A stretch of 21,234 nt of DNA from a virus. Its lineage: Duplodnaviria; Heunggongvirae; Uroviricota; Caudoviricetes. Made by a program: the position numbers and the translations under genes. Below, piece by piece: positions 17,270-19,813 of this stretch (position 1 is the stretch's first letter; every line of letters begins with the position of its first letter). Under the pieces are notes generated by a model. The model made no database searches. It saw only the letters and a program-made list of their open reading frames with translations, and was not told the DNA's origin. The stretch lies in IMG/VR virus record IMGVR_UViG_2537562190_000017; one strand, given 5' to 3'.

Positions 17270-19813
17270 ATGAGCACTGATAAAGAAACTTTTGCACTAT
17301 ATTGCGAAGCAAAAAATGACAAGGTCAGAAAACGCCTTGGGATTAAAGGTGGTTTTTACTGGACTACAGCAAAAAAATTATCTGTTGCCATCTCCCGCTG
17401 CATTACCGCAATGGATGATAATGATTATGACGAGGACGACTTTAAAAAACCTGTTCGCGTCCATTTACCCGTTGTGAATGACCTTCCTCCAGAAGGCGTG
17501 TTTGATACTGAATTCTGCAACCGTTACGAAAAAGGCGGGGAAGATGGTATCACAATGATATTTATAGCTCCTTCCCCTTCAGCTCAGGACAAACCTGCCA
17601 GCACTGACAATACCAGCGGCGAAGCTGTTACAGGTGTCAGCCGTGACTGCGATGAACAAAGTGACTCTCAGACAGAGAACGCAGATAAAAGCGAATCCCC
17701 GGACAGCAACGATGACTGCCCTGAATGTGAAATCCCCGTCTCCACCCTGAGTCTTACCCATCGCTTCCTGCACCTCTACTTCTTTGGTCAGGAGTTCGAC
17801 GAGAAATACAAACATCACGCCACACCAGAACAACGCAAGGACGTGATCCGCATCGAAATGGATATGGAAGATGGAAACATACAGAGCCTGCTTACTGCAG
17901 TACGTTCGCATCCTGAGCTGGATAAGCTGACAAACCATCATCTTGGAAGACTGGCGCATTCGGTGGAAAAGGCATTCACTCACGCAACAACACGCCGTAT
18001 CAGCCCGGCAGAATTCGACAAGTTCATTTCCACCTGGATGAAGACTGACTACCTTGATCAGGGGCTGTTGACAAAAGAGTGGGCAAAGGGAAATTGCGTA
18101 TCTGAAATCAATCGCACCCCGTCCGGCGCTAATGCTGGCGGAGGAATTCTTACCGATCGCGGTGAAGGTTTTGTCCACGATGATGCGTCAGTGGAACGTG
18201 ACGTTGCCGCTGGCGTTCTGGCCCGTTCAATGGACATCGATATTTACAATCCACATCCGGCACACGCCAAACGCATTGAAGAAATCGTTTCAGAGAATAA
18301 GCCGCCCTTTTCTGTTTTTCGTGACAAATTCATCGCCATGCCTGGTCACCTGGATTATTCCCGCGCGATAGTAGTTGCGTCCGTGAAAGAAGCACCAATT
18401 GGTATCGAGGCTACTCCCCACCGTGTTACCGAATATCTGAACAAAGTACTGACCGAAACCGATCATGCCAACCCTGATCCGGAAATCGTGGATATTGCCT
18501 GCGGTCGCTCCTCTGCCCCTATCCCGCAGCGTGTAACAAAAGAAGGAAAACAGGATGATGAAGAAAAACCGCAGCCATCTGGCGCAATGGCAGATGAACA
18601 GGCAACGACTGAAGCAGTGGAACCGGATACAACTGAACATAATCAGGACACGCAGTCGATGGATGCTCAGCCACAGATAAATTCTGTTGATGCGAAATAT
18701 CAGAAACTGCGTGCAGAACTCTATGAAGCCAGGAAAAACATTCCACCCAAAAATCCTGTCGATGCAGATAAATTACTGGCTGCTTCTCACGGAGAATTTG
18801 TTGAAGGGATTAGCGACCCGAATGATCCGAAATGGGTGAAGGGGATTGAAACCCGCGATTCTGTGAACCAGAACCAGCACGAATCGGAACAGAACGACCA
18901 GAAAGCAGAACAAAACAGCCAAAATGCGTTACAAGACGAGCCAGAAACGAAACAATCCGAACCATTAGCGCAACAGGAAGTGGAGAAAGTCTGCACCGCA
19001 TGCGGTCAGACCGGTGGCGGCAACTGCCCTGATTGCGGCACTGTGATGGGCGACGCAACATACCAGGAAACATTCGATGAAGAGAACCAGGTTGAAGTTC
19101 AGGAAAATGATCCGGAGGAAATGGAAGGCGCTGAACATCCACACAAGGAGAACACTGGCAGCGATCAGTATCACGCCAGCGATAATAAAACTGGCGAAAC
19201 AGCAAATACCTTAATTAATATGAACGGTCATCATAAAATCACATCCACCAGCAGGTTGTGGCACCATCTGATGATTGACCTTGAAACAATGGGAAAAAAT
19301 CCTGATGCGCCGATCATCTCAATAGGTGCAATATTTTTCGATCCGCAAACCGGAGATATGGGACCGGAATTTAGTAAGACTATCGATCTGGAAACTGCTG
19401 GCGGAGTCATTGATCGGGACACCATTAAATGGTGGCTTAAGCAATCACGCGAAGCGCAATCTGCCATTATGACCGATGAAATCCCGTTAGATGATGCACT
19501 GTTACAACTGCGGGAATTTATCGACGAAAACTCCGGTGAATTTTTTATTCAGGTCTGGGGAAATGGAGCCAACTTCGACAACACGATTTTGCGCCGTTCA
19601 TACGAACGGCAGGGGATCCCCTGCCCGTGGCGTTACTACAACGATCGCGATGTACGCACAATCGTTGAGCTGGGGAAAGCCATAGACTTCGATGCCAGAA
19701 CGGCTATTCCATTCGAAGGTGAGCGCCATAATGCACTTGATGACGCCCGTTATCAGGCAAAATACGTTTCAGCCATCTGGCAAAAACTGATCCCGAGTCA
19801 GGCTGATTTTTAA
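17270..19813 (+). CDS. Large multidomain protein (847 aa) at the recE-equivalent locus: N-terminal and central domains, acidic and Q/E/N-rich linkers, C4 zinc ribbon, C-terminal DEDDh-type 3'-5' exonuclease domain
   Basis: TGAGG SD. Zinc ribbon [16 protein letters not shown] (about nt 18992-19039). Exonuclease motifs: Exo I MIDLET (nt 19271-19288), Exo [12 protein letters not shown], Exo [13 protein letters not shown] (from nt 19727). Confidence 0.85.

Follow-up and report, generated by a model that had tools for sequence, protein, structure and literature searches.

The 21,234-nucleotide window analyzed here (IMG/VR virus record IMGVR_UViG_2537562190_000017, taken at its full length) contains at 17270-19813 (+) an uninterrupted open reading frame (ORF) with an ATG start and 847 codons plus stop. 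Judged from its sequence, the 847-amino acid product appears to be a three-module mosaic exonuclease that arose by domain shuffling. Module 1 (residues 1-497; 17270-18760) is of the type found at the N-terminus of RecE, and module 2 (residues 498-660; 18761-19249) is a linker common to the RecE of the Rac prophage and the exonuclease of Qin-type prophages. Module 3 (residues 661-847; 19250-19810) belongs to the Rv2179c-like/T4 DexA family and is predicted to be a DEDDh 3'-5' exonuclease; it sits where RecE has a PD-(D/E)XK nuclease of 5'-3' polarity. All three modules, and the motifs within them, are on the + strand.

An earlier note on this DNA had described the ORF and had placed DEDDh motifs and a 3'-5' exonuclease in its C-terminal part, and our searches agree with it on each of these points. 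Residues 665-837 match the Pfam family PF16473 (Rv2179c-like) over its full length (model positions 1-177 of 177) with an E value of 2e-67 and 226.8 bits against a cut-off of 27. The Exo I motif, MIDLET, spans residues 668-673 (19271-19288) and supplies the catalytic D669 and E671. Exo II lies at residues 763-772 (19556-19585), where the Asp of an 'FD' pair is the catalytic residue, and Exo III at residues 820-829 (19727-19756) contributes H820 and D825. All five residues occupied invariant columns in alignments of 12 and of 47 homologs. In an AlphaFold model of residues 571-847, the predicted local distance difference test (pLDDT) score exceeded 90 for residues 661-847, fell to about 65 in the hairpins of the zinc ribbon, and was below 50 along the linker (residues 596-660). 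Comparison of this model with the PDB using Foldseek ranked T4 DexA (8kel) first (E = 2e-11); RNase T, a DnaQ domain, REXO2 and Orn came next, and all five had probability 1.0; residues 661-847 are predicted to adopt an RNase H-like fold of the DnaQ type. Every sequence and fold feature of PF16473 and of the DEDDh superfamily for which we tested was found in the domain. A structure search among viral proteins showed that the domain is common in many phages as a standalone 'exonuclease' or 'DexA' of 180-250 residues, and numerous phage homologs carry the annotation '3'-5' exoribonuclease'. An internal start at M667 that would free the DEDDh domain was considered and rejected, as no convincing ribosome-binding site is present upstream of it.

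T4 DexA (exonuclease A; PDB 8KEL, 8KEN) was also the sole match of the nuclease domain in a PDB sequence search, which makes it the best match in both sequence and structure among solved proteins, and it has the same DEDDh catalytic residues. It differs in being a standalone protein of 227 residues from a virulent phage, with extra loops, and its sequence identity to the window protein is 26%. DexA is a 3'-5' DNA exonuclease that prefers single-stranded DNA (PMC12153337). The founder of PF16473, Rv2179c of M. tuberculosis, is in contrast a standalone bacterial exoribonuclease; it was found neither in the PDB sequence search nor among the 50 best structural matches, even though the window protein matches its family over the full length.

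Purifying selection acts on all three modules. Relative to three relatives with 78-82% protein identity to the window protein, the ratio of nonsynonymous to synonymous substitution rates (dN/dS) was 0.14-0.34 for module 1, 0.17-0.25 for module 2, and 0.13-0.21 for module 3, values that argue against a decaying scar. The gene is real, very common in E. coli, and already annotated: PGAP names it 'exonuclease' or '3'-5' exonuclease', and a protein that is 100% identical to the window protein (P0122) carries the public names 'exodeoxyribonuclease VIII' or 'exonuclease'. Identical or near-identical proteins (P0122, P0126 and the phage records H19-H22) that are called 'exodeoxyribonuclease VIII' carry PF16473 and are without the nuclease domain of that enzyme. 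The label 'exodeoxyribonuclease VIII' on identical proteins is a propagating annotation error, and such records can mislead the typing of prophage recombination modules. Our literature search found no study of the gene and no description of the chimera, of an intact product of ydfE, or of modularity in the N-terminal part of RecE.

The RecE-type module and the Qin-type exonuclease

The earlier note had found no place for residues 170-520, had regarded the zinc ribbon and the linkers as novel additions, and had raised the question of whether the N-terminal and central parts resemble the N-terminus of RecE. They do, and both the central region and the ribbon with its linkers turned out to be part of RecE's own N-terminal region. 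NCBIfam PRK09709 (exodeoxyribonuclease VIII) matched residues 1-649 over model positions 1-602 of 877. As the protein lacks the last third of RecE, its score of 874.2 bits stays under the 1269 required for the equivalog. By BLASTP, residues 58-649 align with residues 50-591 of K-12 RecE at 57% identity, which is far higher from about residue 255 onward, and Pfam Exonuc_VIII (PF06630) was found at residues 57-196 (E = 4.7e-12, 46.6 bits against a cut-off of 25). The aligned stretch takes in the CxxC-x7-CxxC ribbon and the acidic tail. The ribbon (C575-x2-C578-x7-C586-x2-C589, residues 575-589; 18992-19036) is as the earlier note described it and is also present in K-12 RecE as CNACGQTGGDNCPDC; Pfam DZR matches it weakly (E = 0.34). 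Module 2 as a whole consists of a conserved motif, a Q/N/E-rich stretch, the ribbon, and an acidic tail, and acidic and Q/N-rich stretches, also as described earlier, are found at residues 100-150, 420-470, and 530-650.

The similarity stops at about RecE residue 591, near the start of the RecE nuclease domain, which was crystallized as residues 564-866 (PMC11611040). PF12684, the PD-(D/E)XK family, is matched by K-12 RecE and by P0175, whereas it has no match in the window protein. The window protein and Rac RecE thus have in common about 590 homologous N-terminal residues that include the KLLAAS... motif, the ribbon and the acidic linker, as well as a similar length and a location between the immunity region and the excisionase and integrase genes (xis-int). 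They differ in that the PF12684 domain is swapped in the window protein for a DEDDh domain of opposite polarity, and in that recT follows recE and does not follow the window gene. Full orthology to RecE, against which the earlier note had also come down, is ruled out by the absence of PF12684, the PRK09709 score, and the lack of recT.

Module 1 itself was modeled with low confidence. The AlphaFold model of residues 1-500 (built with 32 homologs) had a mean pLDDT of 49.9 and was moderately confident only at residues ~155-360, which are helical; residues 1-154 and 395-471 are predicted to be disordered. Foldseek of this model against the PDB gave nothing under E = 1, and a profile of 82 family members of the N-module had no match among all PDB sequences. 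No function is assigned to the N-terminal two-thirds of RecE, and the only effect recorded for the full-length enzyme is an enhancement of linear-linear recombination (PMC11611040).

At the DNA level, positions 18039-19215 of the window are 81% identical to Rac recE and positions 18761-19821 are 93% identical to the Qin exonuclease gene of E. coli C. Because these matches overlap at 18761-19215 (residues 498-649), the segment common to Rac recE and the Qin-type gene, the window gene reads as a mosaic in which the N-module is RecE-type, the linker is shared, and the DEDDh domain is Qin-type; the DNA breakpoints, at 18761 and 19215, are the edges of the shared segment. The Qin exonuclease of E. 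coli C (823 residues) is encoded in the order dicA, ydfA, ydfB, ydfC, dicB, ydfD, exonuclease, xis, int, and has the same dicB-ydfD-exonuclease-xis-int operon setting as the window gene. The two proteins correspond only at residues 498-847 of the window protein, where the linker, zinc ribbon, and DEDDh domain show 85-97% protein identity. In contrast, the N-terminal ~470 residues of the Qin exonuclease are YdfE-type and are tied to the N-terminus of the window protein through intermediate sequences only; BLASTP of the latter against K-12 YdfE detected no direct similarity. K-12 ydfE is a pseudogene, the IS2-truncated N-terminus of a Qin-type exonuclease, and the DEDDh form has plausibly escaped study because K-12 has only this remnant. 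Two further proteins (P0046 and P0059) join the first 60-130 residues of a YdfE-type N-terminus to the middle of the DEDDh domain, without Exo I; they derive from the Qin-type gene by deletion and probably lack activity.

Of 5426 complete E. coli genomes, 4051 (75%) contained the DEDDh-domain DNA (19232-19813) at >95% identity, in up to seven copies, and 1730 contained DNA of the canonical recE nuclease domain. The DEDDh form occurs in prophages related to Shiga toxin (Stx) phages and in O157 prophages, and the gene that bears it is kept intact in thousands of cryptic-prophage remnants. The exact combination seen in the window (at least 80% of the gene by megablast) was found in 91 of the 5426 genomes, which is a lower bound because more divergent proteins that join a RecE-type N-module to a DEDDh domain exist at 74-97% identity.

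Operon position and partners of the N-terminal module

The window is a lambdoid prophage of mosaic composition, and the prophage most closely related to it, that of strain UTAK-6, sits beside ompW. The earlier note had treated the locus as Rac-type, which is half of the picture, since the locus is as much Qin-type, with a DicF-like RNA, dicB, a ydfD-like gene, the exonuclease gene, xis, and int. The immunity repressor gene (15534-15995, +) has its likely start inside the ORF at 15576, and only the C-terminal part of its product is DicA-like. The DicF-like small RNA (16567-16615, +) matches Rfam RF00039 over its full length at a score below threshold (29 bits versus 48; E = 7e-4), lies upstream of dicB as in Qin, and ends in a terminator-like hairpin at 16584-16610. 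Immediately upstream of the exonuclease gene are dicB, whose product is 61% identical to K-12 DicB, and an overlapping ydfD-like gene of the DUF1482 family (together 16804-17177, +). The Qin genes dicB-ydfD-ydfE-intQ are transcribed from the dicB promoter, which DicA represses (PMC11430063). A promoter of the gene's own was also looked for: one weak -35/-10 match was present at 17225-17252, and as the scan found fewer sites than in shuffled sequence, it provides no evidence for one.

Downstream, xis (19878-20126, +) starts 65 nucleotides past the exonuclease stop codon and the integrase gene runs from 20104 to the window end at 21234 (+); the two follow directly, and there is no room for an annealase gene. 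PHROG scans of 20 ORFs in 7236-21234 detected the repressor, Cro, CII-like, O-like and DnaC-like replication proteins, a Ren-like protein, DicB, the ydfD-like product, excisionase, and integrase, and no member of the RecT, Bet, Erf, or Sak families. The near-identical UTAK-6 prophage has no annotated annealase either. A hidden annealase gene is ruled out for the early region of the window, and the late region of UTAK-6 that corresponds to DNA beyond the left end of the window shows lysis and packaging genes only. For the DEDDh fusions, xis-int came directly next in each setting that we inspected, namely the window, UTAK-6, E. coli C, L039, L041, and L042, and the five contexts other than the window likewise have no annealase beside the DEDDh gene. 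A standalone homolog of 189 residues in Salmonella holds the same last place before xis.

The earlier note had taken the absent annealase as an argument against a recombination module. That argument does not hold for the N-module: in relatives it adjoins Gam-Bet-Exo or forms fusions with domains of the RecT type or, probably, the Rad52 type. Close homologs of residues 1-500 fall into three architectures: PF06630 with PF16473 (826-852 residues), PF06630 with PF12684 (canonical RecE, after which recT comes next), and PF06630 alone (~690 residues). A HMMER search of 1.84 billion cluster representatives recovered 188 relatives of the N-module, and because this exhaustive search gave so few the family is narrow. 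We classed the C-terminal partners of the 84 representatives with at least 450 residues by local BLASTP, a crude assignment that gave PD-(D/E)XK in 20, DEDDh in 13, a short tail in 11, a distinct domain of ~240 residues that is probably Rad52-like in 8, RecT in 2, and none of these types in 30. The architecture of RecE-type N-module plus DEDDh recurs in representatives whose modules are ~30-60% identical to those of the window protein. In several of them the DEDDh domain is only 54-60% identical to that of the window and still fused, and the fusion is therefore old or recurrent.

The nuclease-less type is exemplified by P0152 (692 residues), whose gene has gam, bet (RecT family), and exo (YqaJ family) directly downstream, with xis and int after them. 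Its N-module and zinc-ribbon linker are 81% identical to those of the window protein; it differs in having no nuclease domain, in ending in a hydrophobic tail of ~45 residues, and in the gam, bet, and exo genes downstream. A ~690-residue 'RecE family exodeoxyribonuclease' at 6001-9840 of L032-L034 has the same plan of RecE-type N-terminus, zinc ribbon, and hydrophobic tail (DWKRQLVLAAVYGLCANPAC). This nuclease-less protein was found in 468 blocks of the contig index, its gene lies immediately 5' of gam-bet-exo, and its name is misleading. In P0242 (703 residues; one of the two RecT representatives, with PF06630 and PF03837, the RecT family, both confirmed) a K-12-like RecE N-terminus passes from the zinc ribbon straight into the RecT domain; this protein would be a natural deletion that lost the RecE nuclease domain and fused recE to recT.

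The ~240-residue domain is fused to a RecE- or YdfE-type N-module in P0245, P0260, P0292, P0306, P0309, P0315, P0339, and P0345. Among Pfam families Rad52_Rad22 matches it best, at a score under the threshold (E = 0.0056, 17.1 bits versus 20.3) and through the motif KKSLTDAIKKALSLLGFSADI; a PDB sequence search gave no match. The domain is encoded by a separate gene in Pseudomonas phage PMG1 (L043, 3489-4235) and is fused in gp07 of Pectobacterium phage ZF40 (L044, 2666-4831); a Sipho_Gp157 gene comes next in both. The PHROGs annotation of the domain is 'exonuclease'. It may be a mis-named annealase, which we offer as a lead only.

Taken together, these architectures show that the N-module is independent and mobile and that its partners in relatives are recombination proteins. 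RecE and RecT are a workhorse of recombineering, and the unexplained part of RecE is an independent, selected module that phages have recombined with several nucleases and annealases. Natural 'swap' constructs are thereby available for probing its role.

Readings of the function

The reading we favor, to which we give about an even chance, is that a repressor-controlled early phage protein supplies DNA ends in the recombination slot with a 3'-5' exonuclease of the DexA type, without an annealase of its own. After derepression of the prophage, the gene would be transcribed along with dicB and xis-int as part of the early-left operon, which the repressor controls. The C-terminal domain would then remove nucleotides from free 3' ends using two metal ions, and its substrate would most likely be DNA, with single strands preferred as for DexA. 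Via the flexible linker, the N-module would bring the nuclease to the target that it serves in RecE and beside lambda Red; this target is probably the DNA ends themselves or a host partner located there. The protein would accordingly be an alternative end-processing enzyme that works with host functions or simply trims or destroys 3' tails, and not a two-component exonuclease-annealase recombinase. Candidate benefits of 3' trimming are the exposure of 5' overhangs for annealase-independent joining, the removal of 3' tails that would load RecA, and the cleaning of ends before packaging or integration.

Several points weigh against such an assignment. A 3'-5' exonuclease yields 5' overhangs, which are not the usual substrate of RecA or annealases, and the gene comes without an encoded partner, so that any positive contribution to recombination is conjectural. 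The sequence does not tell DNA from RNA as the substrate, and the Pfam family takes its name from an exoribonuclease. The low-confidence model of the N-module and the lack of any fold or profile match make its 'targeting' role pure inference. The promoter scan, with fewer sites than in shuffled sequence, counts here as well. Finally, what has been published on the homolog EcD and on further DEDDh nucleases of prophages favors defense instead (PMC12153337, PMC13344964).

A wider version of the favored reading is possible, although doubtful: the RecE- and YdfE-type N-modules would be a dedicated adaptor of enterobacterial phage recombination regions, with interchangeable effectors recruited by fusion or adjacency. 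The effectors would be PD-(D/E)XK or DEDDh nucleases, RecT- or Rad52-type annealase domains, or a whole lambda Red system in trans. The exchange of effectors might reflect an arms race against host systems able to sense the nucleases of phages; the retrons Sen2 and Eco9 are triggered by RecE itself, through its degradation of multicopy single-stranded DNA (msDNA) (10.1101/2020.06.22.160242). If the adaptor reading is true, the DEDDh version, the commonest in E. coli, would represent an unrecognized annealase-independent form of end processing.

The main rival to end processing in the recombination slot is a superinfection-exclusion or defense nuclease, in which the DEDDh domain would destroy incoming modified DNA in the manner of EcD, or the 3' ends of RNA phages in the manner of the TONDO nucleases, with the N-module as an auxiliary or specificity domain. 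EcD ('HREX'), an E. coli homolog of DexA, is reported to digest T4 DNA and to protect E. coli from T4 (PMC12153337). We recovered EcD-like genes from viral contigs via the published primers. EcD (GenBank HAK9828821.1) is a member of the same DexA/Rv2179c-like family, and it aligns to residues 667-840 of the window protein with 37% identity over 183 residues (E = 1e-36); it differs in being a standalone protein of 189 residues in another genomic setting, with an Ala (Ala78) at the position of DexA D90. The standalone EcD gene is present in the viral or prophage IMG/VR contigs L008, L009, L011, L012, L021, and L023, and the published account does not mention a prophage (PMC12153337). TONDOs are prophage DEDDh nucleases with variable auxiliary domains that belong to an ISG20-like clade and act against RNA phages, described in a 2026 preprint that confined its candidates to fewer than 500 residues (PMC13344964). 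The intact gene in thousands of cryptic-prophage remnants, together with purifying selection, would also fit a benefit to the host.

We nevertheless consider a defense role unlikely. DexA W152 and D169, both proposed to recognize 5-hydroxymethylcytosine (5hmC), align with a Tyr (in RYYNDRD) and an Ala, respectively, in the window protein, the latter assignment being moderately secure because of a nearby gap. D90 of DexA, a tetramer residue that is said to be lost in the 'dimer-only' defense variants, is kept as D742, and S87 aligns with a Pro. Because the published marker residues are not conserved, the function of EcD is not simply transferable to the window protein. TONDOs are by their description a different DEDDh subfamily, and no defense-protein family of PADLOC-DB 2.0.0 matched the window protein at E values up to 0.01. 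Moreover, the gene lies inside a repressor-controlled early operon and not in a moron-like unit with an evident promoter of its own (PMC11430063), and the other partners of its N-module are recombination proteins.

Considerably less probable is an exonuclease for RNA or short oligonucleotides like Rv2179c or Orn, which would serve host takeover, RNA turnover, or the removal of linear signaling or priming oligonucleotides as an anti-defense measure. The name of PF16473, the presence of the dinucleases Orn and REXO2 among the structural matches, and the many phage homologs annotated as '3'-5' exoribonuclease' speak for it. These annotations are, however, propagated names and not experiments, DexA was the sole PDB sequence match and the top structural match whereas Rv2179c was absent among the matches listed, and no gene in the neighborhood is concerned with RNA or nucleotide signaling. 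The earlier note had proposed RNA processing or degradation of cyclic oligonucleotides. Nothing we found supports either; the nearest characterized relatives act on DNA 3' ends (PMC12153337), and cyclic oligonucleotides offer an exonuclease no free 3' end, which it needs.

Very improbable, finally, is a selectively neutral scar, a functionless chimera that arose when Rac-like and Qin-like prophages exchanged DNA, whether homologously or illegitimately: both breakpoints are at the edges of the segment common to the parental gene types, as homologous exchange between co-resident prophages would give, at least 80% of the exact combination was found in only 91 of the genomes, and clear deletion derivatives without Exo I exist (P0046, P0059), but the reading frame is intact, dN/dS is 0.13-0.34 across all modules, the catalytic residues are invariant, and the recurrence of the architecture with modules ~30-60% identical implies an old and maintained combination.

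Other features of the prophage

Several observations concern the remainder of the window. A strong match to the small RNA family STnc100 (148 bits) was found at 4276-4476 (-), between a DUF6645-like gene and a DNA methyltransferase gene, and a second, weak copy below threshold (30.8 bits) at 16617-16823 (+), upstream of and overlapping the start of dicB. The early-right region encodes a 348-residue transposase (9369-10415, +; phrog_157, E = 1.5e-76), which looks like an insertion sequence (IS) insertion and ends beside a sok antitoxin RNA (10401-10568, -; 100.8 bits); opposite the latter, an ORF of 51 residues (10501-10656, +) occupies the place expected for hok. At 11884-12293 (-), overlapping ORFs of 84 and 90 residues correspond to the C- and N-terminal parts, respectively, of the Ren-like/DUF977 family phrog_142, which suggests that this gene is frameshifted; UTAK-6 has one intact gene there. 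ARAGORN detected no tRNA genes in the window (1-21234). The UTAK-6 prophage carries three of them between its methyltransferase and DUF6645 genes (L001, 5899-6152).

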